A stretch of 12,710 nt of DNA, from the IMG/VR virus record IMGVR_UViG_3300002460_002611. The stretch is one strand, 5' to 3'. Source of the stretch: a virus. A program made the position numbers and the translations under genes. Under the pieces are notes generated by a model, which saw only the letters and a program-made list of their open reading frames with translations, did not search any database and was not told where the DNA came from. Of this stretch, positions 2,524 to 12,510 are shown in pieces. Every line of letters starts with the position of its first letter. Positions within the stretch are counted from its first letter, which is position 1.

Positions 2524-2832
2524 ATGCTGCTTGACCTCCCTTCTACGCTCATCCCAGGCGCCCTCTATGCCCTAGAGGGTGAGATTGGGCTCACAACAGA
2601 GACCACGCCCCGAGGAAGGTCTCAGCACTTGCTGTTACGTATTGGTGCGATACGTCATGCATCGGTAGGACAAGTGGAACCGCTGGTCTTTATCAAGACT
2701 ACGTTGGCTGGAAAGAACGCGCCAGGCATGTCAATGCACTGGTTCATGTCGAGGCTGGGTCCGTGCTACAGGAACACGCTCCCTACGAGCCTTTATCTCG
2801 TGCAGGAGGTCGCTGATGCCGACAGTGAATGA
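2524..2832 (+). CDS. Member of the paralog family. The ORF track starts at TTG 2506; ATG 2524 is preferred, with GGAG 8 nt upstream.
   Basis: 'LIPGALYAL...EPLVFIKT...FMSRLGPCYRN'. The 3' end overlaps the next gene's start. Confidence 0.65.
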   Translation: MLLDLPSTLIPGALYALEGEIGLTTETTPRGRSQHLLLRIGAIRHASVGQVEPLVFIKTTLAGKNAPGMSMHWFMSRLGPCYRNTLPTSLYLVQEVADADSE

Positions 2833-3898
2833 GATTGAGAGAAGGTTTCTTGTGAAGGAGATCGATCTCAAGCATCGTGCACTCAAGGACAACAACGTCT
2901 GGAACGGGTGTGAGGTCCATCTCACGCAGGGCTACCTTGACATCCCGGGCAGCATGCGCGTGAGGTCATACACGTTCAGGGGCACGGGCCTCCAGAGGCA
3001 TGAGCTGACGAGGAAGACGGGCAAGGGCCTCCTTCGGGTTGAGCAGAATGCAGACATCTCTGCCGAGGCTGCGCAGATGCTGCTGGGCTCGACGCCCTTC
3101 ACGATCAGCAAGACGCGCCGCATGTGTGATGGGTGGGAGGTTGACTTCTTCCACGGGCGGCTTGAGGGCCTCATCATGGCAGAGAAGGAGCTCCAGCATC
3201 CCGACGAGCCTTGTCCCATTCCGCCCTGGATAGCAGATGCTGTTGAGGTGACAGACTTCATCAGCAACAAACAGCTCGCCCGAGCCGCGTTCCTGCTGTC
3301 ATCTGATGAGCCTCTCTCTATCCTTGATGCGCGTCGTCTCAGGCGCGTGGTCCTGACGGGTGCACCGTGCTCGGGCAAGAGCGCGTTCGTGGAGCAGTTC
3401 AGGGGGACGCCTGGGTTCCATTGTGTGCCAGAGGTTGCGACGATTGTCATGGGGCAGCTCAATGTCATGCCCGAGTCAGGAGCAGCAAGCTTCCAGCGGA
3501 CGCTCTACCGCATGCAGCACCTGTTCGAGGACGCTGCTGAGGTCCAGGCCCAAAGGGACGGCAACGGGACAGTGGTCATCGACAGAGGGTCGCTCGATGG
3601 GGCCGCCTTCATGCCGGGAGGGCTGGATGAATACACAACCCTCGTTCAGACAGACGCTCTGTCGGAGCTCGGCAGGTATGACGCTGTCATCTTCCTCAGG
3701 CTGCCCCCGCGTGATGTGTGGGAGAGGAACAGGGCGAACAATGCAATCAGGCGTGAGACGTGGGAGCAGGCCCTCGTGCTTGAGGAGAGGCTGCTTGATG
3801 TGTGGTCCAGGCATCCCAACCTCATCGTTGTCGGAGGCAGGCCCACGTGGGAGGAGAGGTTCGCTGACATCATTGGACATGTCAGCTGCAGGTTGTAG
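2816..3898 (+). CDS. Two-domain enzyme: N-terminal CYTH / triphosphate-tunnel metalloenzyme domain fused to a C-terminal P-loop kinase of the NadR-AAA_28 / uridine-kinase-like type
   Basis: The N-terminus 'VNEIERRFLVKEID' is the ExExK CYTH signature (nt 2831-2854). Walker A 'VVLTGAPCSGKSAF' lies at nt ~3352-3390, followed by 'VPEVAT' and an 'IDRGSLDGAAF' region typical of NadR-type nucleoside kinases. AGGAGG sits 6 nt before ATG 2816. Confidence 0.8.
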   Translation: MPTVNEIERRFLVKEIDLKHRALKDNNVWNGCEVHLTQGYLDIPGSMRVRSYTFRGTGLQRHELTRKTGKGLLRVEQNADISAEAAQMLLGSTPFTISKTRRMCDGWEVDFFHGRLEGLIMAEKELQHPDEPCPIPPWIADAVEVTDFISNKQLARAAFLLSSDEPLSILDARRLRRVVLTGAPCSGKSAFVEQFRGTPGFHCVPEVATIVMGQLNVMPESGAASFQRTLYRMQHLFEDAAEVQAQRDGNGTVVIDRGSLDGAAFMPGGLDEYTTLVQTDALSELGRYDAVIFLRLPPRDVWERNRANNAIRRETWEQALVLEERLLDVWSRHPNLIVVGGRPTWEERFADIIGHVSCRL

Positions 3899-3907
3899 GA
3901 GCGTCAG

Positions 3908-4192
3908 ATGAATGAGAAGTTTGATGTGGGAGACCTTGTCGGCATAGTGGGTGTCAGCTACAACGGGCTGTCTGACGACGGACACCTCCTGAATGGAGGA
4001 TACTGCGATGTGGGTTGCCAGTGCGGCGCCTCGCCACCCGCACACCACATGCTTCTGCTATACATGGGCAGCGACTACAACTACAAGCATTTCGAATCTA
4101 TCCATTGGTTCCTGACGCAGACGGGGGAGCGCTGCTGGCGATACTCGACAGAGCACCTCATACTCGTGTCATCACATGATGGGATGCTATGA
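3908..4192 (+). CDS. Paralog family member, Cys-rich-insert subgroup
   Basis: 'FDVGDLVGIVGV...DGHLLNGGYCDVGCQCG...HHMLLLYMG...WFLTQTGERCWRY...LILVSSHD'. AGGAG lies 6 nt upstream, and the next gene starts by ATGA overlap. Confidence 0.75.
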   Translation: MNEKFDVGDLVGIVGVSYNGLSDDGHLLNGGYCDVGCQCGASPPAHHMLLLYMGSDYNYKHFESIHWFLTQTGERCWRYSTEHLILVSSHDGML

Positions 4193-4461
4193 CGTTGGGC
4201 TTGGGCGTAGAGATGCAGCCCGGTGACCTCGTGGGTCTCGCTGGCGTCAGGACAGTCTCATTGCAGACAGATGGGTGGTTGTCTAACTGTAAGATGTGTG
4301 TGGGATCGTGTGGATGCTGGTCGGGGCAGCCGCATGTGTGGTTGCTGTATCTGGAGCGTAAAGGATACTGTAATTACTTCCTGACATCTGCGGGCTCAAT
4401 CTGCTTCCGCTACGGAAGCAGGCGTGAGTATGTCGTGGTCTCCAGAGACAGGATATTGTGA
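4189..4461 (+). CDS. Paralog family member, Cys-rich-insert subgroup
   Basis: 'QPGDLVGLAGV...DGWLSNCKMCVGSCGCW...VWLLYLE...YFLTSAGSICFRYG'. ATGA overlaps at both ends. Confidence 0.75.
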   Translation: MTLGLGVEMQPGDLVGLAGVRTVSLQTDGWLSNCKMCVGSCGCWSGQPHVWLLYLERKGYCNYFLTSAGSICFRYGSRREYVVVSRDRIL

Positions 4462-4751
4462 TGACGAAAAGTGCTGCAGACATCAAGTCGGGAGACCTTG
4501 TGGGTGTGAGATCGGGGAGCATGTTTGAGCTGGACCCAGAAGGGCACCTGATGAATGGGTTCTGTTCAAGGGTTGGCTGCACGTGCCACCATGAAGAGGG
4601 TGGGGTGGTGCACATGCTGTTGCTCTACATGGGCCCTAGCACTCACATTGCCGATGTTTCGGGTCCAGTCCATACGTTCCTGATGCCGACAGGACAGGCA
4701 TGCTGGCGCTACGGATACAACAACCTGACGCTGGTCTCATCGTTGGACTAG
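4458..4751 (+). CDS. Paralog family member, Cys-rich-insert subgroup
   Basis: 'KSGDLVGVRSG...EGHLMNGFCSRVGCTCHH...VHMLLLYMG...FLMPTGQACWRYG...LTLVSSLD'. Confidence 0.75.
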   Translation: MMTKSAADIKSGDLVGVRSGSMFELDPEGHLMNGFCSRVGCTCHHEEGGVVHMLLLYMGPSTHIADVSGPVHTFLMPTGQACWRYGYNNLTLVSSLD

Positions 4752-4752
4752 G

Positions 4753-5148
4753 ATGTTCGCCCTTACTGGGACGCTACGTTACGACATCATGCTGGGCTAC
4801 GGACACAGGCTCGTCGTTGATGTTGAAAGGGACGTCGCGAGGTTCTATGCAGCATTGGTCCCAAGGAGCGTGGGCATCAGGTCGCAACGCTATGCGCCCC
4901 ATGTGACAGTCGTCAGGCTTGAGACGCCCAGCATGATGTCTGCATGGGGCATGAGGCAGGGCCAGCGTGTGAGCATGTGGTATGACCCGTACGTCTACAA
5001 CGACGAGAGGTATTACTGGCTTCGCGTGCACTCAGATGAGCTTCTTGACGTCAGGAAGGAGCTCGGGCTGCCATCATCGAGCAGGTTGAGCAGGCCGCCT
5101 GACGGCGTCGAGTGCTTCCACATGACGATAGGGAACACAAAGCCATGA
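4753..5148 (+). CDS. Small 2H-phosphoesterase-superfamily protein (LigT / cyclic phosphodiesterase / Acb1-like), 131 aa
   Basis: Two H-x-T-x motifs flanked by hydrophobics with typical spacing: 'APHVTVVRL' (His50, nt 4900-4902) and 'ECFHMTIGN' (His123, nt 5119-5121). It starts 2 nt after the upstream stop and ends in an ATGA overlap with the next gene. Confidence 0.7.
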   Translation: MFALTGTLRYDIMLGYGHRLVVDVERDVARFYAALVPRSVGIRSQRYAPHVTVVRLETPSMMSAWGMRQGQRVSMWYDPYVYNDERYYWLRVHSDELLDVRKELGLPSSSRLSRPPDGVECFHMTIGNTKP

Positions 5149-5477
5149 GCAAAAGAGAGAAGCTGAGGCTTGCGCAGCTGGTCCAGGGCGACCTGCTGCA
5201 GCTGCGTTGCTACGATGCATCACGACTAGAGATCGGTGACAACGAAGGTCACCTGTGCGGAGACATCTACGATCCTGAACGTCATGACCTCTTCGACGCC
5301 AAGCGCTTCGACAGGTGCACCGCACTCGTCCCGTTCATCTACCTGGGTCCTCATGATGTCAAGCATTCCAACACAGCAGCCAGGCTCCTGTCACCCACAC
5401 ACGGTGTCTGCTGGCGTTATGTGTGCCATGCCCTAGAGCTGGCGCAGCCCGTGTCAGCGTGTGAGGAGGACCAGTGA
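5145..5477 (+). CDS. Paralog family member. The ORF track start is GTG 5112; ATG 5145 is preferred because it forms an ATGA overlap with the 2H gene stop.
   Basis: 'LVQGDLLQL...EGHLCGD...VPFIYLGP...LLSPTHGVCWRYV'. Confidence 0.7.
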   Translation: MSKREKLRLAQLVQGDLLQLRCYDASRLEIGDNEGHLCGDIYDPERHDLFDAKRFDRCTALVPFIYLGPHDVKHSNTAARLLSPTHGVCWRYVCHALELAQPVSACEEDQ

Positions 5478-5478
5478 C

Positions 5479-5802
5479 ATGCATATGAATGAGCTACACA
5501 ACTACAAGAGCCCGACGGGTGAGGTCTGGAACGCGGGTGACCTGTGTGCGCTCACGATCACTGGCCCATTTTCTCTACGTGTAGAAGTTGAATACGTGAC
5601 CCAGGGTCACCTTATCGGGGCCACTGGTGGCTTGGATGAGCCCCTCATCTTCTTGGGTGTGTCATACAACGATGACTACAGCCGCTTGATCGCGTATCTC
5701 TTGTCTTTTAGGTTCGGTGCGTGTTGGAGGTTTGTGTGGTCCGACCAGACGGGTGGGTTGAAGCGTGTCCAGCAGCTGCAGCCTGATGTGTCGTCGCAGT
5801 GA
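5479..5802 (+). CDS. Paralog family member. The track start is GTG 5461; ATG 5479 is preferred, with AGGAGGA 8 nt upstream and 2 nt after the upstream stop.
   Basis: 'GEVWNAGDLCAL...QGHLIGATGGLDEPLIFLGV...LLSFRFGACWRFVW'. Confidence 0.7.
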   Translation: MHMNELHNYKSPTGEVWNAGDLCALTITGPFSLRVEVEYVTQGHLIGATGGLDEPLIFLGVSYNDDYSRLIAYLLSFRFGACWRFVWSDQTGGLKRVQQLQPDVSSQ

Positions 5803-5825
5803 GTGAAGGCCGAGGAGAACGTAAC

Positions 5826-6131
5826 ATGGACAGCCTCATATGCAACGGAGAGACATGGGCGGTCGGTGACATGTGCAGCTATGATGGTAGAAATGCCTTA
5901 GGCCAGTTTTGCATCGACCAACACAACAGCTGGTATCCCAACCACCTGCTAGGCAGGCCTGCTATCCCAGAGCCCCTCATCCTCATGGCGATAGAGCGGC
6001 ATGAGATACTCACGGCTGCACACGTCGTGTGGTTCATGTCTGTGACGTTCGGGCTGTGTTGGCGCTTGGTGTGGCCGGATGATGCAGACGATGTCGTGCT
6101 ATGTCAGAAGCAGTCTGAGACTGCACCATGA
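5826..6131 (+). CDS. Paralog family member. The track start is GTG 5799; ATG 5826 is preferred, with GAGGAG 8 nt upstream.
   Basis: 'GETWAVGDMCSY...NHLLGRPAIPEPLILMAI...WFMSVTFGLCWRLVW'. Confidence 0.7.
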   Translation: MDSLICNGETWAVGDMCSYDGRNALGQFCIDQHNSWYPNHLLGRPAIPEPLILMAIERHEILTAAHVVWFMSVTFGLCWRLVWPDDADDVVLCQKQSETAP

Positions 6132-6463
6132 TGGTGCCCAGGCTTGAACAGTTCCTGCAATCACGTGATGAGACGTGGCATGCAGGCGACCTGTGCGCGT
6201 TTGTGGAAGTGCACGGTGTGGACCTCACGCCGTATGTGGATGAAGAAGGTCACCTCCTTGGCAGTCCTATTGAGCCCATGCCCCTCATCTTTCTGGGCGT
6301 CTGTTGGTCAGAGAACAGAGAATACAGGAAGGTATGGTTCATATCGCCCGTGCACGGTCCCTGCTATAGAATCATCAATGACGCATCAAGGGGTCGGGTG
6401 CATCATGTGAGTCGGGCGCAGACGATCGCTAGCGTCACAAGGAGCATGCATCATGACACATGA
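6128..6463 (+). CDS. Paralog family member (ATGA overlap with the upstream gene)
   Basis: 'DETWHAGDLCAF...EGHLLGSPIEPMPLIFLGV...WFISPVHGPCYRI'. Confidence 0.7.
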   Translation: MMVPRLEQFLQSRDETWHAGDLCAFVEVHGVDLTPYVDEEGHLLGSPIEPMPLIFLGVCWSENREYRKVWFISPVHGPCYRIINDASRGRVHHVSRAQTIASVTRSMHHDT

Positions 6464-6710
6464 TATGCCTCTTCCGGGCGACCTGCTTATGTTCGCCACG
6501 AGCAATTGGTCAGTGCCTGACATGAGGCCCAACGGTTTCCTCTATGCCCGCCATACGTTGACATCGAACAATCAGCTAGCTGATTGCTTTGAGCCAGTCA
6601 TGATGCTATGTGACGAGGAGACGACGGGTCGCGTTCACCTGCTATCTGCTAGGTTTGGTCTGTGCTGGTGGTGGCGAGATTGGCTATTGTATCGTCATGT
6701 CGGCGCCTAG
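6453..6710 (+). CDS. Paralog family member (11-nt overlap with the upstream gene; alternative ATG at 6465)
   Basis: 'LPGDLLMF...NGFLYAR...EPVMMLCDEE...HLLSARFGLCWWW'. AAGGAG lies 8 nt before ATG 6453. Confidence 0.65.
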   Translation: MTHDMPLPGDLLMFATSNWSVPDMRPNGFLYARHTLTSNNQLADCFEPVMMLCDEETTGRVHLLSARFGLCWWWRDWLLYRHVGA

Positions 6711-6740
6711 CCTGGCTCATTGGGGTGCAGCCACTTAGAG

Positions 6741-6762
6741 CAGCTGGTGACAGCTGGTGACA
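6741..6762. repeat. Perfect tandem duplication of the 10-mer 'cagctggtga' (2 copies plus 'ca') in the only sizeable intergenic gap inside the paralog array
   Basis: 'cagctggtgacagctggtgaca' read directly from the sequence; it lies just upstream of, or overlapping, the start of the 6757/6766 gene. Confidence 0.6.
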
Positions 6763-6765
6763 TAC

Positions 6766-7083
6766 ATGGGTGATAAGCTACAGCCGGGTGCCCTGCTTGC
6801 GTTAGTCATGAAGCCTGGGTTCATGCCCGCTGCGACAGATGACGGGCAGCTGTATGCACAGGGGCTCATAGGTCTAGCTGCGCCGTGGTTGCAGAGGCAC
6901 GTTGAGCCTATGATCCTGCTTGGCCGTGAGCTGATCCAGTCGCGTGTATCTTATAAGCTCATGCTGCTGTCAGCTAGTCTAGGCCCATGCTGGTGTTGGA
7001 ACTTGGTATTGAGTGATGATGACATATTTTCATGTCGCCTCATCGTGGTGAGAGCCCATCCAGGTGGAGCAACTAATGGATGA
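6766..7083 (+). CDS. Paralog family member (the track start is GTG 6757; ATG 6766 is equally plausible)
   Basis: 'QPGALLAL...DGQLYAQ...EPMILLGREL...LLSASLGPCWCWN'. Confidence 0.65.
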   Translation: MGDKLQPGALLALVMKPGFMPAATDDGQLYAQGLIGLAAPWLQRHVEPMILLGRELIQSRVSYKLMLLSASLGPCWCWNLVLSDDDIFSCRLIVVRAHPGGATNG

Positions 7084-7336
7084 CATCAACCTGGATGGCT
7101 GCATCATTGAGGCGGGCGACCTTCTGGCGTTCAATGCTCCCGCGTGTGTGGAGGACGACCAGCTCCTGCATGATACTTCTTTTGGTGTGTATGTGACAGA
7201 GCTGCTTATCTACGTGGGCGCTGAGAGGTTCCCAGGAAAACCAGACTCGAGGTTCTGGTTCCTGTCCATCAGGTTCGGCCTGTGCTTCAAATGGACGAAC
7301 AGCTACCTGACGTTGGTGCAGCGAAGGGGATGGTGA
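7076..7336 (+). CDS. Paralog family member. The track start is GTG 7064; ATG 7076 is preferred, with GGTGGAG 6 nt upstream.
   Basis: 'IEAGDLLAF...DDQLLHD...ELLIYVGAER...WFLSIRFGLCFKW...YLTLVQRRGW'. Confidence 0.7.
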   Translation: MDDINLDGCIIEAGDLLAFNAPACVEDDQLLHDTSFGVYVTELLIYVGAERFPGKPDSRFWFLSIRFGLCFKWTNSYLTLVQRRGW

Positions 7337-7445: not shown

Positions 7446-10097
7446 ATGGAATTGAGCGACAATCGAACACAGAACGAACTTGTTCTCTCGCCAGGTGAAT
7501 TTGCATTGAGCCAGGACACCACATCAGGCATCCTGAAGTGCATCACAGGCCCTGGGATTTTGCAAATTACTGGGCAGGAAACGCCCGTAGCGTTTGACCC
7601 AAAGACGGGTCGCTTTGCTCGCTGTGATCTGGCTACAGCTGTCCAGCAGTTTGCGCTTGCGAAGCAGGGCCAATATATGGTCCTTTCAAATCCGGCGCAG
7701 AACGGAAAGCAACCTGTCGTCAAGGAGAAGAGCGCAGCCGCTGAGCTCAACATGGGTCAGAAGGTCAACATCCAGGGACCCATCACGTTTGCACTGTGGC
7801 CCGGCCAGAGCGCGACAGTGATTGAGGGCCACAACCTCAGGTCGAACCAATACCTTCGTATCCGTGTCTACGATGAGGATGCTGCTCGTGAGAACTGGAC
7901 GAAGGGTGTCGTGAAGGCTGCGCAGATCGCCGGTGGCGCGTCTGATGATGCTGACGCTGGAAAGGGAAAGGCGCAGACAAAGGGACACACTCAAAAGGGC
8001 CTCTTTGAGGCAGTGCCTGGTGACCTTGCTGTGGGTAAGCACTACATCGTTCGAGGCGATGAGTTCTCGTTCTACATCCCGCCGACAGGCGTCGAGGTCG
8101 TCACGGATGACAACGGGTCCTACGTTCGTGATGCCACCACCCTTGAGCGCCTTGAGTATTGCATCCTGATCGATGAGAACGGGAGCAAGCGCTACGAGCA
8201 GGGACCTAAGGTCGTCTTTCCGACGCCGACGGAGAGGTTCTTCGAGGAGCAGGAGAAGGGGCAGCGCATCTGCTCGTTCAAGCCCATTGAGCTGAATGAG
8301 ATACAGGGACTACACGTCAAGGTCATCTCTGACTACGCTGAGGCTGACGGGACCCAGCGGAAGGAGGGTGAGGAGCTCTTCATCAGGGGGTCTGAGACGC
8401 CCATCTACTTTCCGCGGCCTGAGCATGCTCCTGTGAAGTATGATGGGAAGTTCAAGCACTTCGCCACGGCTGTCCCGGCGGGTGAGGCTCGCTACGTCCT
8501 GGAGAGGAAGACGGGCGCGATCAGGACCGTCAAGGGACCCTGCATGCTACTTCCTGACCCTCGGACCGAGGTGATCGTCAGGCGTGTCCTCAGCGACAAG
8601 CAGTGCAACCTGTGGTATCCTGGCAACCTGGAGGCGCAGCGTTACAACTCAACGTTGCGTGAGCTGATGCGTGTCACGCCCACGACGAGGCCCTCCGGGA
8701 CCGTCTCTGAGGGAGAGGTGACGAGGTCGAAGAAGGTCAAGCAGAGCACGTACGGGAACGTCTCTGGGTTCGCCGACAGCAGCCTCATCAGCTCTGACAG
8801 CGCGCTCTTTGGAACCGACGAGTTCAGCAGGGGCAGCACCTACACTGAGCCTAGGACCGTCACGCTTGACACCAAGTTCGGGGGCGTGCCCACGATCGAG
8901 GTCTGGACGGGATACGCTGTCCTCATCATCGACAAGCAGGGGAACAGGCGCGTTGAGATCGGGCCCAAGACAATTCAGCTTGAGTACGATGAGCAGCTCG
9001 AGGTCCTGTCGATGAGCACGGGCAAGCCGAAGAACACGGACCAGCTTGTGCAGACGGTCTACCTGCGCGTAAAGAACAACCAGATCGGTGATGTTGTGAC
9101 GGCTGAGACGCGGGACCATGTCAACGTCTCCTTCAAGGTCTCCCTCAGGGGTGACTTTACGGATGAGCCAGGGCGCTGGTTTGAGTGTGAGAACTACGTC
9201 AAGCTGGTGTGCGACCACGTCAGGTCGGTCCTCAAGGCCGAGGTCAGGAAGCTGAAGGTGGAGGAGATATACAGCGACCCGACGTCGATCGTGAGGGACG
9301 CCATCCTGGGTGCTCGCGGTGGTGAGGACGTCTCACGACGGGGCATGCTGTTCGATGAGAACGGGTTCCACATCCTCGATGTTGAGGTCCTCGACTTCAA
9401 GGTGGGCGATGACCGCATCGCACAGATGCTTGACAACACTCAGCACAGTGTGGTTGAGTCAAACATCAGCCTTGCCCTGGCGGAGAAGAAGCTTGAGATC
9501 GACAGGCGACAGGAGGAGATCGACAGGGAGCGCGTCCAGCTCAAGACTGAGACTGAGCGCCTCAATGCGACGACGAAGGCTGACCTCGATAGGTTCAACG
9601 TGGACCTTGAGACCGAGAGGGTTGCTCGCCACCTGAAGCTGTCGTTGGACCGCATCTCGTCGCAGATCGACGAGACGACGAAGAGGGAGGAGATGCAGGC
9701 CGTTGAGCAACGCCTCCTTGATGAGAAGCAGGGGGCTGAGCTGGCGCGGCAGAAGAAGGACGCTGACGTCAGGAGCAGCATCGACCGCGTCATCCAGGAG
9801 CTGGAGCTCGCCCGGTCACGGGAGGAGACTGAGCACGTCATCCAGAGGTTCCAGGCTGCCAACGGACCCCTCGCAGAGGCGCTGCTGGCCCTGGGCAACC
9901 AGGACACGGTCGTCAAGCTCGCTGAGGCCCTGAGCGTCCAGAGCTTCATCGGGGGCAAGACGGTCGTCGATGTGGTGCAGAAGGTCTTCGCTGGATCGCC
10001 CGCAGCGGGTCTCGTTGAAAAGGCGCTGCAACGGGCGCTCCCTGCCTCCGTCGAGGCGAACGGAGCATCGGGAGGCACCAAGCGGGCTTCTGCGTAG
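7446..10097 (+). CDS. MVP: Major vault protein (MVP) homologue, full length (883 aa): N-terminal MVP repeats, SPFH-like shoulder, long cap-helix coiled coil and cap-ring region
   Basis: Length and architecture match eukaryotic MVP (~890 aa). Collinear motif matches to human MVP as I recall it: 'LEVLSMSTGKPK' vs 'FTVLSLSAGRPK'; 'VVTAETRDHV' vs 'VITIETADHA'; N-terminal 'LSPGEFALSQDTTSGILKCITGPGILQITGQE' vs '[31 protein letters not shown]'; shoulder 'FHILDVEVLDFKVGDDRIAQMLDNTQHSVVESN' vs '[33 protein letters not shown]'. This is followed by a charged heptad-like region, 'LAEKKLEIDRRQEEIDRERVQLKTETERL...', in the cap-helix position. AAGGAGG precedes the start (ATG 7446, or TTG 7452 with better spacing). 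Confidence 0.85.
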   Translation: MELSDNRTQNELVLSPGEFALSQDTTSGILKCITGPGILQITGQETPVAFDPKTGRFARCDLATAVQQFALAKQGQYMVLSNPAQNGKQPVVKEKSAAAELNMGQKVNIQGPITFALWPGQSATVIEGHNLRSNQYLRIRVYDEDAARENWTKGVVKAAQIAGGASDDADAGKGKAQTKGHTQKGLFEAVPGDLAVGKHYIVRGDEFSFYIPPTGVEVVTDDNGSYVRDATTLERLEYCILIDENGSKRYEQGPKVVFPTPTERFFEEQEKGQRICSFKPIELNEIQGLHVKVISDYAEADGTQRKEGEELFIRGSETPIYFPRPEHAPVKYDGKFKHFATAVPAGEARYVLERKTGAIRTVKGPCMLLPDPRTEVIVRRVLSDKQCNLWYPGNLEAQRYNSTLRELMRVTPTTRPSGTVSEGEVTRSKKVKQSTYGNVSGFADSSLISSDSALFGTDEFSRGSTYTEPRTVTLDTKFGGVPTIEVWTGYAVLIIDKQGNRRVEIGPKTIQLEYDEQLEVLSMSTGKPKNTDQLVQTVYLRVKNNQIGDVVTAETRDHVNVSFKVSLRGDFTDEPGRWFECENYVKLVCDHVRSVLKAEVRKLKVEEIYSDPTSIVRDAILGARGGEDVSRRGMLFDENGFHILDVEVLDFKVGDDRIAQMLDNTQHSVVESNISLALAEKKLEIDRRQEEIDRERVQLKTETERLNATTKADLDRFNVDLETERVARHLKLSLDRISSQIDETTKREEMQAVEQRLLDEKQGAELARQKKDADVRSSIDRVIQELELARSREETEHVIQRFQAANGPLAEALLALGNQDTVVKLAEALSVQSFIGGKTVVDVVQKVFAGSPAAGLVEKALQRALPASVEANGASGGTKRASA

Positions 10098-10222: not shown

Positions 10223-10567
10223 ATGGGACTAAACGTGGGAGATGCTGTGCGGCCTGTCGTGGCCCTTGAGCTGAGGGAGCTTGAGGACGTCTACGGAAAG
10301 GCATTCAACCAGGCCATCCCAGGACGCTCAAAGAAGAACGTGACACGTGATGGTCACACGTTCCTTGACGGCTACCTGGGCATCTACCTCGGACCCAAGT
10401 ATCGTCAGATGCGTGACAGGCGGGGCGATGCGGGCTGGGTGCACAGGCTATTCCACTGCTTTCTGTTCGGGGGCGTGGAGGTGATGATAGATCCGCAGCA
10501 CATAGAGCTCGTAGCTGTCGAGCAGGCAGAGACAAGCGCAGACGATCCAACCGACGAGGAGGACTGA
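10223..10567 (+). CDS. Hypothetical protein (114 aa), acidic C-terminus; possibly a very divergent relative of the paralog family
   Basis: N-terminal 'GLNVGDAV' resembles the 'LNVGDLL' start of the truncated family member at 12513. 'DGHTFLDGYLGIYLGPKY' loosely echoes the GHL / LIFLG motifs. It ends in a TGATG overlap with the next gene. Confidence 0.5.
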   Translation: MGLNVGDAVRPVVALELRELEDVYGKAFNQAIPGRSKKNVTRDGHTFLDGYLGIYLGPKYRQMRDRRGDAGWVHRLFHCFLFGGVEVMIDPQHIELVAVEQAETSADDPTDEED

Positions 10568-11397
10568 TGACGATCGACATTGAGGCCGTTCCCTACAGGA
10601 CAACGCTTGACCAGATCGATGTGCCCGATGCGCTGAAGAGGCGCTATGCCTTCCACTCAGACCACGACAGGCGTCTCATGTTCGTCACGAGCCTGTTTGG
10701 CGGGCAGGGCATTGCACCATCGACAGTCACGCTGTTGACGGGCAACCCGGGCGCCGGAAAGAGCACCCTTGCTGTCCAGATGGCACAGGCATTGCATGCA
10801 CGAAGCGACTGCCTGGTCCTGTTCAACGGGCTGGAGGAGAGCCTGCACCAGACGCGCATTGTCGCTGACCGACTGTTCAGGAACTCCACACCCCCATTCT
10901 TCGTCGGGACAGACACGCTCGTGACGAGCCGGAACCCAAAGATGAACGGGCGCGTGCAGGCTGAGACGAAGTCGGGAAAGCGTCGCGCTGTGCTGGACCA
11001 CGTCCAGGTCCTTGCTGCTGCGCATCCGAACAGACAGCCCATCCTGATCGTGGACTCGCTGCAGTGCCTCGATGATGGACACTATCCCGATGGGTTTATC
11101 AACAGGTCCAGCACCCTGCGTGCATTGAAGCTCGTCAGGAGCTTCTGCAAGCAGACGTACGCGGCTGCCATCCTGATCGGGCAGGTTACCAAGAGCGGGG
11201 ATCCCGCTGGAGACAACAAACTAATTCACAACATCGACGTTCATATCCACCTGGGCATCGACACCAAAGAAAAGTCAGAGACCCAGGGCATGCGGATAGC
11301 GACGACCAGAAAGAACCGTTTTGGAGTTGCAGGGCAAACACATATCTGCAACATGTGGCCAACAGGTCTGGTCGAAGAGAACTCGTTGGTTACGTAG
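10567..11397 (+). CDS. RadA/Sms-like RecA-superfamily ATPase, core ATPase domain only (no N-terminal zinc finger or C-terminal Lon-like domain)
   Basis: Walker A 'LLTGNPGAGKSTLAVQMA' (nt ~10735-10790); 'LFNGLEES' EES motif of the KaiC/RadA clade; Walker B 'PILIVDSLQ'; 'IGQVTKSGDPAGDNKLIHNIDVHIHL' aligns with RadA 'GHVTKEGxIAGPxxLEHxVD'; hallmark RadA/Sms 'KNRFG' at nt 11311-11325. Confidence 0.8.
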   Translation: MTIDIEAVPYRTTLDQIDVPDALKRRYAFHSDHDRRLMFVTSLFGGQGIAPSTVTLLTGNPGAGKSTLAVQMAQALHARSDCLVLFNGLEESLHQTRIVADRLFRNSTPPFFVGTDTLVTSRNPKMNGRVQAETKSGKRRAVLDHVQVLAAAHPNRQPILIVDSLQCLDDGHYPDGFINRSSTLRALKLVRSFCKQTYAAAILIGQVTKSGDPAGDNKLIHNIDVHIHLGIDTKEKSETQGMRIATTRKNRFGVAGQTHICNMWPTGLVEENSLVT

Positions 11398-12304
11398 GGC
11401 AAATCTCTTACGCACATTTCTGCATCAAGCGGCATAGTTATGATGCATGAAAAGAAAAGGTCGTTCTGACCAAAGGAAGTATCACTTCACATACAAGACA
11501 ACATGCCTTGTAACAGGAAAGTACTACTACGGCATGCATAGCACAGACAAGATGGACGATGACTATCTGGGTTCAGGACAGATCCTTCGCTACTCAGTGA
11601 AGAAATACGGACCTGAGAATCACGTACGTGAGGTGTTACAGCTGTTCTCTGATAGAGCATCGCTCATCCAAGGTGAGAAGGAGCTTGTGACAGAGAGTGT
11701 GGCTGCAGGACCCATGTGTATGAACATGTGCGCAGGAGGTGCGACATCAAGGGGTGGTCCTCGACAGAAGAGACCCTACAAGCCTAGGGGACCCATGCCC
11801 GAGGAGACGAGGCTTAAAATATCACTATCGAATATGGGAAAGAAGCACAGCAAAGCCACGAGACGAAAGATGTCGAAGGCCAAGCTGGGAAAGACGTGGA
11901 CTTGGAACAAACCGATGTCAGATGAGCAGAAGAAGCAGATATCGGATACGTTGAAGGGCAAGAAGCTCTCTCCCTGGAACAAGGGGATAAAGATGGGTCC
12001 TCTATCTGATGAACAAAAGCAGAAACTTTCAATGTCCTTGAAGGGAAAAAACAAGGGCAAGAAGATGTCTGACGCGCAGAAAGAGCTTCTACGCCAGATC
12101 AATCTAGGAAAGAAGCACACTGCGGAAGCTAAGGCTAGGATGTCAGCTTCAAAAAAAGGGAAGAAAAAACCACCTCGCTCAGCTGAGCATTGTAAGAACA
12201 TGTCTGAGGCGCATAAGGGAAAAGTCCTATCAGAAGAACATAAGCGAAACATCAGTGAAGGTATGAAGATAGCCTGTGCTAAAAAGAAACAAGAGAGTAA
12301 GTGA
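11398..12304 (+). mobile_element. Probable homing-endonuclease gene insertion (compositionally distinct cassette) between the RadA-like gene and a paralog-family gene
   Basis: The AT-rich 49-nt leader (11398-11446) and the HEG ORF have a codon and GC profile clearly different from the flanks (many AAA/AAG/AGA/ATA codons), typical of a laterally mobile HEG. Confidence 0.6.
11447..12304 (+). CDS. GIY-YIG homing endonuclease with C-terminal array of NUMOD3 DNA-binding repeats (free-standing HEG)
   Basis: N-terminal 'KYHFTYKTTCLVTGKYYYGMHSTDKMDDDYLGSGQILRYSVKKYGPENHVREVLQLFSDRASLIQGEKELV' matches the GIY...YIG / conserved-Glu layout of T4 Seg / I-TevI-like enzymes. The C-terminal half has at least 6 reiterations of 'S/HxEQKxKIS.xxKGKK' (NUMOD3). 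GC content is markedly lower than in neighbouring genes. Confidence 0.85.
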   Translation: MKRKGRSDQRKYHFTYKTTCLVTGKYYYGMHSTDKMDDDYLGSGQILRYSVKKYGPENHVREVLQLFSDRASLIQGEKELVTESVAAGPMCMNMCAGGATSRGGPRQKRPYKPRGPMPEETRLKISLSNMGKKHSKATRRKMSKAKLGKTWTWNKPMSDEQKKQISDTLKGKKLSPWNKGIKMGPLSDEQKQKLSMSLKGKNKGKKMSDAQKELLRQINLGKKHTAEAKARMSASKKGKKKPPRSAEHCKNMSEAHKGKVLSEEHKRNISEGMKIACAKKKQESK

Positions 12305-12510
12305 CATCGCAGCTTAAATTGCGCCAGGTGCGCACGGGTGACCTCATTGAGATCGTCGAGGGTAGGCCTGAGTTGGTCCTGTCTGATTGCCTGACGAGTT
12401 CAGACAATTACATGCATGTCCTGTGGGGTGACGGCACACAGAGGACCTGGTATACAAGCGAGATCGTGTGTCGTCGCATCCTTGCCCGTGCTGAGGACAT
12501 GGAGCCTTGA
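12301..12510 (+). CDS. Hypothetical small protein (69 aa), start uncertain (GTG 12301 / TTG 12319 / GTG 12328); KOW/SH3-like N-terminal 'TGDLIEIVEG' motif
   Basis: Starts overlapping the HEG stop. 'VRTGDLIEIVEGRPELVLSD' resembles the N-terminal motif of the paralog family but lacks the C-terminal CWR motif. Confidence 0.45.
   Translation: MTSQLKLRQVRTGDLIEIVEGRPELVLSDCLTSSDNYMHVLWGDGTQRTWYTSEIVCRRILARAEDMEP

Follow-up and report, generated by a model that had tools for sequence, protein, structure and literature searches.

Introduction

Several described systems resemble parts of the protein reported here. NeuTTM of Nitrosomonas europaea (NE1496, PDB 2fbl/3typ) and enzymes of the CthTTM type have a CYTH, or triphosphate-tunnel (TTM), domain, and NeuTTM is a stand-alone protein of 150 amino acids (aa). 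In NadR and in the phage NARP3 enzyme Bas30_86, a ribosylnicotinamide kinase (RNK) domain of the Pfam family AAA_28 is joined to a nicotinamide mononucleotide adenylyltransferase (NMNAT), and salvage and counter-defence activity have been found by experiment for the phage NadR-like RNK domain (PMC13464706). TTM1 and TTM2 of Arabidopsis, a type present in plants and Amoebozoa, link a P-loop kinase of the nucleoside or nucleotide type covalently to a CYTH domain; these membrane-anchored proteins have a kinase of the PRK/UCK family (PF00485) and, in plants, a CYTH domain without the catalytic motifs (PMC8233210, PMC9582702). A sequence-similarity survey of CYTH proteins contains multidomain clusters only for fusions to CHAD and to the plant kinase (PMC8233210). 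Here we describe a gene for a CYTH domain fused to an AAA_28 kinase, located in a viral DNA sequence of 12,710 nucleotides (nt), IMG/VR record IMGVR_UViG_3300002460_002611, the whole of which is called the window below.

The two-domain fusion is confirmed as real and is far beyond chance. Both domains come from well-studied superfamilies and do not constitute a new kind of protein; it is the pairing that is new. Despite the size of the family, a literature search turned up no account of a CYTH plus AAA_28 protein from a prokaryote or virus. What the two domains are, that their catalytic residues are intact, that they are paired repeatedly and in which genomic settings they lie are matters of observation. 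The explanation that we favour, with belief and doubt about evenly balanced, is that the fusion is a bifunctional enzyme of small-molecule salvage, a nucleoside-type kinase plus a triphosphatase, for the salvage of nucleotides or cofactor precursors.

The fusion gene

A preliminary description of the window had read the open reading frame (ORF) at 2816-3898 as a CYTH domain preceding a NadR/AAA_28-like P-loop kinase. Pfam, PHROG, profile and structure matches bear this out, with profiles placing the CYTH half with NeuTTM and the kinase half with AAA_28. The ORF list, the start and stop codons, identical public gene calls and full-length homologues of the same architecture define the gene, and its features are as follows.

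2816..3898, plus strand: complete CYTH-AAA_28 fusion gene, stop codon included
2804..2809, plus strand: AGGAGG, read from the sequence 6 nt 5' of the ATG, the likely ribosome-binding site
2822..3295, plus strand: CYTH/TTM domain, aa 3-160
2831..2845, plus strand: EIERR, aa 6-10, N-terminal metal and triphosphate motif of the ExExK type, here ExExR (E6, E8, R10)
2927..3190, plus strand: other tunnel residues, Q38/Y40, R48/R50, K67, R74/E76, K99/R101, E108/D110 and E123/E125
3296..3337, plus strand: inter-domain linker, aa 161-174, with a predicted local distance difference test (pLDDT) score below 50 at aa 165-171
3338..3895, plus strand: AAA_28 (NadR/Ttd14-type) P-loop kinase domain, aa 175-360
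3359..3382, plus strand: Walker A P-loop GAPCSGKS, aa 182-189 (G182, P184 and K188 invariant; C185, G187 and S189 at least 90% conserved)
3425..3442, plus strand: VPEVAT, aa 204-209 (E206 and A208 invariant), with E206 the candidate general base for a 5'-OH acceptor
3581..3610, plus strand: DRGSLDGAAF, aa 256-265, with the DRx motif (D256 and R257, both invariant) of the thymidylate and deoxynucleoside kinase type
3737..3757, plus strand: NNAIRRE, aa 308-314, probable lid segment by position and analogy (R312 invariant; N309 and E314 at least 90% conserved)

The ORF runs from an ATG at 2816 to a TAG at 3896-3898 and encodes 360 aa. It lies in a run of plus-strand genes and its start overlaps the preceding ORF (2506-2832) by 17 nt. 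The same 360-aa gene has been called with the same coordinates on four public contigs with identical protein. One of these, the 128-kb groundwater scaffold ENA ERZ28563591 ANAN16 scaffold_174, contains the entire window region with the same genes and identical proteins. No tRNA genes were found in the window, Megablast of the whole window against 50,697 phage records gave no match, and the fusion protein had no hit in PADLOC or NCBIfam.

An AlphaFold2 model of the protein has a mean pLDDT of 88.8 and a predicted template modelling score (pTM) of 0.57, with the linker disordered at aa 165-171. With so low a pTM beside so high a mean pLDDT, the model does not define how the two domains are oriented to each other.

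The CYTH domain

As a single sequence, the N-terminal half matched Pfam CYTH (PF01928) at aa 6-102 with E=2.9e-4 and 21.2 bits, about 2 bits short of the curated cutoff of 23.2, and the NeuTTM chains 3typ/2fbl at about E=1e-4. The assignment made in the preliminary description was borne out by a match to PHROG 6660 (E=4.5e-10) and by a profile built from 35 family members, which matched NeuTTM (PDB 3typ/2fbl) over the entire domain with E=1.8e-21. A structure search with the AlphaFold2 model returned NeuTTM and SaTTM for this half, and the eight-stranded beta-barrel tunnel fold of the CYTH/TTM superfamily is present.

Conservation was examined in an alignment of 35 full-length homologues of 36-80% identity, and a second alignment of 22 phage-clade members showed the same pattern. 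Residues E6, E8, R9, R10, Q38, Y40, R50, K67, R74, K99, R101, E108, E123 and E125 are invariant among the 35, and all the tunnel residues listed above, including R48, D110 and E76, are invariant or nearly so. The acidic tunnel residues, whose conservation the preliminary description had singled out for checking, are thus retained in both alignments. E6, E8, R9 and R10 are unchanged in both. The motif that had been described as ExExK is indeed at aa 6-10 but is ExExR, with R10 invariant across the family; NeuTTM presumably reads EIERK where the window protein has EIERR. Pairwise alignment places Y40 and K67, both invariant among the 35 homologues, on Y28 and K52 of NeuTTM. These two residues are the proposed catalytic dyad of that enzyme (PMC3440374).

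The likeness to NeuTTM and the CthTTM-type enzymes extends to fold, domain size, sequence (30-34% identity in structure-based alignments), the Tyr/Lys dyad and the tunnel residues of the ExEx(K/R), RxR, K, KxR, ExD and ExE motifs. The differences are that the CYTH domain of the window protein is covalently joined to a kinase and that an invariant arginine stands in place of the motif lysine. Judged by its residues, the CYTH half is a generic TTM-type hydrolase with its catalytic residues intact.

Two more specialised activities of the superfamily were considered. Class IV adenylyl cyclases need the motif HFxxxxExExK and thiamine triphosphatase needs the aromatic residue in W/YxRxR (PMC8233210, Vogt et al.). 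The window protein begins MPTVNEIERRF, with no HF ahead of ExEx, and membership of the CyaB type of class IV cyclase was rejected. It was likewise rejected for the 25-kDa type of thiamine triphosphatase, the corresponding segment being SMRVR here and SLRVR in the family consensus, with no aromatic residue. Since its sequence fits neither of these motif rules (PMC8233210), the fusion protein is neither a cyclase nor a thiamine triphosphatase.

These observations bear on the suggestion that the fusion is an enzyme of signalling nucleotides, for example a cyclase that makes cyclic nucleotides, or a hydrolase and kinase with alarmones or second messengers of defence as substrates. Class IV adenylyl cyclases are found among the CYTH proteins (PMC8233210), a SpoT-type HD gene, its family assigned from motifs only, adjoins the fusion in three Patescibacterial loci, and ThiF/E1-like genes lie near it in loci L016, L021, L048 and L196. 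The cyclase motif is absent, however, PADLOC gave no hit, and no defence or signalling gene is conserved beside the fusion at the loci examined. We consider a role in signalling most improbable and retain the salvage enzyme as the favoured explanation.

The kinase domain

The C-terminal half matched Pfam AAA_28 (PF13521) with E=4.1e-21 and 76.3 bits (cutoff 27), the full profile (1-164 of 164) aligning to aa 177-348. All three kinase motifs named in the preliminary description were found, at aa 182-189, 204-209 and 256-265, and the lid, for which it had suggested a conservation check, has an invariant R312 with N309 and E314 at least 90% conserved. The kinase columns invariant among the 35 homologues are G182, P184, K188, E206, D256, R257, Y288 and R312. 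The suggestion that E206 may be the general base comes from the VPEPV motif of deoxynucleoside kinases. The DRX motif is a hallmark of the thymidylate kinase superfamily (PMC12995831).

In the structure search, the closest match of the kinase half was the RNK domain of NadR, followed by thymidylate and deoxynucleoside kinases, and the best kinase matches in Foldseek were thymidylate kinases. There was no match to PF02223 (thymidylate kinase) at E<=0.1, while PHROG 2107, 'thymidylate kinase', matched with E=1.7e-3; the DRG sequence and an arginine-bearing lid are present. With AAA_28 matched over its full length and NadR as the closest structural match, the earlier assignment to a NadR/AAA_28-like P-loop kinase stands.

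When E. coli NadR was compared with the family by hhalign, the alignment was collinear over the whole RNK domain and weak (E=2e-4, probability 46%). NadR and Bas30_86 thus share the AAA_28 family with the window protein and differ in having NMN adenylyltransferase rather than CYTH as the partner domain. E. coli NadR also carries FIDTDFVTTQAF in the segment aligned to DRGSLDGAAF, with DTD where the family has the invariant DRG, and the similarity is marginal. Membership of the NadR family of bifunctional enzymes (NMNAT-RNK) for salvage of nicotinamide adenine dinucleotide (NAD) was rejected, there being no CTP_transf_like or NMNAT match and the N-terminal domain being CYTH.

Polynucleotide 5'-kinases of the T4 Pnkp, Trl1 and Clp1 type, in which a Pnk/AAA_33 kinase usually accompanies an end-healing phosphatase, were also considered, and the window protein does not qualify as one of them. 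T4 polynucleotide kinase (Pnk) was not named among the top 60 structural matches of the model. The fusion resembles T4 Pnkp, bacterial Pnkp and the kinase and cyclic phosphodiesterase (CPD) modules of fungal and plant Trl1 in being a P-loop phosphotransferase encoded near an RNA ligase and, in the window, a 2H gene. It differs from these RNA-healing enzymes in having a CYTH domain instead of a HAD or Metallophos phosphatase domain.

Distribution of the CYTH-first fusion

A word-indexed search found about 58 full-length proteins of the same architecture, some labelled 'CYTH domain-containing protein/predicted ATPase' by JGI. An exhaustive profile search returned 859 proteins at E<=1e-30, and at least 140 of the listed representatives at 50% identity cover both domains. 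With one genome per GTDB species, 504 loci encode a relative, and about 40 of the 80 that were kept span both domains; ORF calling in the fetched loci (numbered with an L) was crude. The CYTH-first genomes are mostly labelled Patescibacteria (Uhr-, Yanofsky- and Nealsonbacteria, Paceibacterota, Parcubacteria, Saccharibacteria and Spechtbacterales), and other labels are 'uncultured Gammaproteobacteria', Binatia, Planctomycetia and Acutalibacteraceae. Some of these labels are doubtful, since at least one 'Gammaproteobacteria' locus (L035) has four neighbours in synteny with Uhrbacteria loci. CYTH-first contigs of 336 kb and 951 kb have ordinary cellular surroundings.

In a neighbour-joining tree of 95 sequences, calculated without support values, all the sequences known to come from phage-like contigs fall within one clade of about 24, and none of the 37 genome-derived sequences is inside it. 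The phage contigs of this clade range from 16 to at least 196 kb. Their many genes are short and mostly point the same way, and a major-vault-protein-like gene, a RadA/KaiC-like ATPase and the RNA ligase Rnl1 recur on several of them. Eight phage lineages, partly related to each other, were inspected. The relatives found in a scan of JGI metagenomes all come from the cellular part of the tree and none from the phage clade. A tblastn search of the INPHARED phage records found no fusion, only stand-alone CYTH genes, and one match that had seemed longer (H1, aa 6-218) was likewise a stand-alone CYTH gene, its ORF running on. A scan of IMG/VR found no CYTH-first fusions, its matches being kinase-first fusions and kinase-only proteins. 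The CYTH-first form thus occurs mainly in metagenome-assembled genomes of Patescibacteria and in one phage clade that includes the window gene. Its confinement to Patescibacteria and a single clade of environmental phages hints at gene exchange between them.

Swapped and split arrangements

Many matches that seemed to be kinase only are 347-437 aa long and have the kinase in their N-terminal part, and their Pfam architecture is AAA_28-CYTH or, with an added helix-turn-helix (HTH) domain, HTH_3-AAA_28-CYTH. The window kinase is 24-30% identical to these swapped-order proteins (down to E=2e-22) and the window CYTH domain 26-30% (down to E=8e-6); their CYTH motifs are intact. One swapped-order query gave at least 7988 clusters at 90% identity with E<=1e-10, and among its best 120 matches AAA_28 was found in all 120 and CYTH in nearly all. 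The swapped-order family belongs mostly to gut Clostridia (examples are loci L063, L064, L066, L068, L076 and L182), is named only 'AAA family ATPase' or 'hypothetical protein', and also occurs in IMG/VR gut phage contigs (L091-L104). Neighbouring genes in the latter resemble, by sequence only, a GH25 endolysin and a serine recombinase. The preliminary description had contrasted the CYTH-first order with that of the plant proteins; the abundance of both swapped architectures in Clostridia and gut phages, and the split genes described next, show that it is not the only arrangement in prokaryotes. The distribution of the domain order, which that description had proposed to examine, is CYTH-first mainly in Patescibacteria and in the phage clade, and swapped in gut Clostridia and gut phages. 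The two families have homologous kinase and CYTH domains with the same conserved motifs. The Clostridial and gut-phage proteins differ in their opposite order, often an extra HTH, their hosts (Firmicutes and the temperate-looking phages of these) and, for some, a following gene for the S component of an energy-coupling factor (ECF) transporter.

A split form was found at 6 of 23 kinase-only loci, where a separate CYTH gene lies downstream on the same strand, 0.2-2.9 kb away. The gap is about 0.2-0.3 kb in the first three of the following pairs and 1.2-2.9 kb in the other three.

L054 5998-7302, same strand: kinase gene and CYTH gene
L062 5029-6414, same strand: kinase gene and CYTH gene
L138 9887-11271, same strand: kinase gene and CYTH gene
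L082 6001-8157, same strand: kinase gene and CYTH gene
L059 5998-9539, same strand: kinase gene and CYTH gene
L070 5971-9965, same strand: kinase gene and CYTH gene

In the Saccharibacteria loci L059 and L070, a protein resembling a DEDD-type 3'-5' exonuclease, recognised from motifs only, is encoded directly upstream of the CYTH gene.

The occurrence of fusions in both orders and of split, adjacent genes indicates that the CYTH and kinase activities work together. This is strong comparative evidence that the two activities are probably functionally coupled. The gene following the swapped fusion encodes an ECF transporter S component (PF07155, E=1e-13) in L063, L066, L068, L078 and L083, five Clostridia loci from different families. 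By analogy, the S component and the HTH domain resemble the NadR/PnuC design of uptake, phosphorylation and regulation.

The plant enzymes TTM1 and TTM2 were the comparison offered in the preliminary description, which noted correctly that their kinase precedes the CYTH domain. Membership of their family was rejected, there being no PF00485 match in the window protein, its order being CYTH then kinase and its CYTH motifs being intact. Given that the plant kinase is from PF00485 rather than AAA_28 and that the plant CYTH domain has lost its catalytic motifs, the window fusion is independent of TTM1 and not a reversed form of it.

The plant proteins also suggest another role for the CYTH domain, namely that of a regulatory or ligand-sensing module gating the kinase, as proposed for Arabidopsis TTM1, and of an effector-binding domain in the HTH-bearing relatives. 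Crystal structures of AtTTM1 show the TTM domain inserted in the acceptor pocket of the kinase (PMC9582702), and the swapped-order relatives with an N-terminal HTH_3 parallel NadR, which is both enzyme and repressor. AtTTM1, however, lacks the catalytic ExExK and ExE residues (PMC8233210, PMC9582702), whereas both architectures described here keep the Tyr/Lys dyad and every charged residue of the tunnel invariant, which would be hard to explain for a pure binding module. Pfam finds no HTH domain in the window protein. A purely regulatory CYTH domain is thus very unlikely in our view, and the salvage explanation, in which it acts as a triphosphatase, is preferred.

Genes near the fusion in phages

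A gene for a 2H phosphoesterase lies 0.85 kb downstream of the fusion gene in the window, and RNA ligases or associated genes lie near the fusion in other phage contigs.

4753..5148, plus strand: 2H phosphoesterase, 131 aa, with HVTV at aa 50 and HMTI at aa 123 (PHROG 12204, E=5.4e-17)
L109, the contig of the window itself: Rnl1, 13.4 kb downstream of the fusion
L106: Rnl1, +1.4 kb from the fusion
L107: Rnl1, +5.6 kb from the fusion
L006: Rnl1, +6.5 kb from the fusion
L007: RtcB, +3 kb from the fusion
L108: RNA ligase of PF09414 at +3.7 kb and a Metallophos protein at +1.7 kb from the fusion
L196: RNA-ligase-associated nucleotidyltransferase RlaP, +6 kb from the fusion

The Pfam 2H-SAK match of the 2H gene (E=5.9e-4) is under the cutoff. 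Homologues of this gene accompany the fusion only in the lineage of the window (L001, L002 and L005); in five other phage contigs searched a 2H gene next to the fusion was absent, and in two more it was not seen. The module of 2H enzyme and fusion put forward in the preliminary description is therefore not conserved. RNA-repair genes accompany the fusion more consistently. The eighth phage lineage, L194, is left out of the count of RNA-repair genes because its contig stops directly after the fusion gene.

These neighbours raise the question of whether the fusion heals RNA ends together with a phage RNA ligase. The P-loop domain would act as the kinase for 5'-OH RNA ends that host anticodon nucleases leave behind, CYTH would trim 5'-triphosphate or other phosphorylated ends and the 2H enzyme would open 2',3'-cyclic phosphates, in a heal-and-seal route like that of Trl1. 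RNA-repair genes are near the fusion in seven phage lineages and, since the ligases come from three unrelated families, their proximity is not simply inherited gene order. In the window, the 2H gene has two HxT motifs and is close by, and in large phages ATP-dependent RNA ligases are known to have 2H enzymes and polynucleotide kinases as partners (PMC7824862). Several observations argue against this role. By structure the kinase is nearest to small-molecule kinases, and two related phages (L108 and L194) have a separate AAA_33 Pnk-like gene (PHROG 505). The 2H gene is limited to one lineage. Part of the ligase linkage reflects shared ancestry, as the Rnl1 genes of four contigs are orthologous (42-50% identity), and no linkage to an RNA ligase is seen in the Patescibacterial, Clostridial and gut-phage relatives. 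In addition, CYTH would have no obvious task because cleavage by anticodon nucleases makes no triphosphate ends. The RNA-end processing suggested in the preliminary description thus has the nearby RNA-repair genes of the assessable phage contigs in its favour, but the kinase matches, the separate Pnk-like genes and the unlinked non-phage relatives make it rather unlikely. Salvage of small molecules remains the preferred explanation.

Within 30 kb around the window gene, tblastn found no Pnk-like, Metallophos or RlaP genes and no PnuC gene was seen. The proteins adjoining Rnl1 (205 and 241 aa) had no Pfam or PHROG match. Genes of nucleotide metabolism are also present in the phage regions, with ThyX, dUTPase/DCD, a dNMP kinase, a phosphoribosyltransferase and a Nudix protein near the fusion. 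Stand-alone phage CYTH genes adjoin genes for MazG-like proteins, dUTPase and NTP pyrophosphohydrolases, and phage CYTH and MazG enzymes have been proposed as editors of the NTP pool (PMC7824862).

Homologues of a sigma-54-activator-type AAA+ protein (about 50% identity) are encoded at L107 13441-14649, L108 11484-12665 and L196 3299-4408; those of L107 and L108 adjoin the RNA ligase genes, which recalls RtcR of the bacterial RNA-repair operon. R2K-clade ATP-grasp genes lie near the fusion at L006 11946-13275 and L196 8686-9537, the former paired with a circularly permuted YpsA-like gene.

Other genes of the window

Thirteen small paralogous ORFs of 69-121 aa share the pattern GDL..DGHL..EPLIxLG..FLSxxxGxCWR and have no Pfam or PHROG match. 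They are located at 1571-1864, 3908-4751, 5112-7336, 10223-10567 and 12301-12510, most of them in a tandem array around the 2H gene and after the CYTH-kinase gene, and copies are also present in the related contig L005. An 883-aa protein encoded at 7446-10097 has major vault protein domains (MVP_shoulder, E=1e-18; Vault_3, E=2e-10), which is unusual for a phage; homologues were found on the related phage contigs L005 and L106 by tblastn and on L006 by Pfam. A protein with a DUF2201 metallopeptidase and a VWA domain is encoded at 34-1440. On the parent contig, a few genes upstream (L001 4183-5403), a 406-aa gene has a faint AAA_5 match and is possibly MoxR-like, and sigma-70 and HSP20 genes are also present. 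A RadA/KaiC-like ATPase gene at 10567-11397 is followed at 11447-12304 by a homing endonuclease with NUMOD3 repeats, of the group I intron endonuclease type. The related contig L005 (81%) has no endonuclease at this site, pointing to a mobile insertion.

Discussion

From the domains and their settings we infer on what the enzyme acts, in which direction its activities are coupled and how the phage would profit. The fusion gene would be carried by a large groundwater phage as an auxiliary gene for nucleotide or cofactor salvage. As a hydrolase of the NeuTTM/CthTTM type, the CYTH domain would be expected to remove the end phosphate from inorganic triphosphate (PPPi) or from a nucleoside triphosphate; whether PPPi exists in cells is still unclear (PMC3440374). 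The AAA_28 kinase is predicted to move a phosphate from an NTP onto the 5'-OH of a nucleoside-type acceptor, for which nicotinamide riboside or a (deoxy)ribonucleoside are the candidates and a nucleoside monophosphate is less likely. The two activities would serve one pathway. In favour of salvage are the recurrent pairing of the domains, the likeness of the kinase to small-molecule kinases, the ECF S component and HTH domain of Clostridial relatives and the genes of nucleotide metabolism near the phage copies. Precedents are the NadR-like NARP3 enzyme of phages (PMC13464706), the proposed editing of NTP pools by phage CYTH and MazG enzymes (PMC7824862) and the position of stand-alone phage CYTH genes next to genes for MazG, dUTPase and NTP pyrophosphohydrolase.

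A number of observations weigh against this explanation. No family member has an established substrate. The kinase is distant from the RNK domain of NadR, the hhalign probability being the 46% given above and the family profile retrieving no NadR chain at E<=1. Clustering of neighbouring genes revealed no conserved neighbour at 39 Patescibacteria-type loci; the best cluster was common to five loci, and part of this sharing is plain synteny among Uhrbacteria. At one locus (L009, P0023) the CYTH-first gene lies beside nadE, pncB, nadD-nadK and pncA, but this NAD gene cluster is a single case repeated at no other locus and was rejected as a trait of the family. The ECF link is limited to 5 of about 20 Clostridia loci, all of them with the swapped-order and not the CYTH-first fusion. 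An RNA ligase or ligase-associated gene is 1.4-13.4 kb from the fusion in all seven assessable phage lineages, which suits RNA repair equally. Finally, as the domain orientation is undefined (pTM 0.57), the model allows no statement on substrate channelling.

A more specific proposal, which is our own and which we hold to be decidedly unlikely, is that the CYTH-kinase pair may recycle both products of a reaction that releases triphosphate. The clearest candidate source would be dNTP triphosphohydrolases of the dGTPase/SAMHD1 type, which give a deoxynucleoside and PPPi; the kinase would phosphorylate the nucleoside again and the tunnel domain would destroy the PPPi. If true, this would account for the linkage of the two domains in either order or as neighbours across Patescibacteria, Clostridia and phages, and the phage copies would be a previously unrecognised countermeasure against nucleotide-depleting immunity or, with nicotinamide riboside as acceptor, against NAD-depleting immunity instead.

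Returning to salvage in general, the fusion provides a testable lead on the physiological substrates of bacterial CYTH enzymes, which are an open problem. If the phage copies rebuild pools of nucleotides or NAD precursors, they would count, with NARP1-3 and the nucleotide enzymes of phages, among the metabolic means by which phages contend with bacterial immunity.

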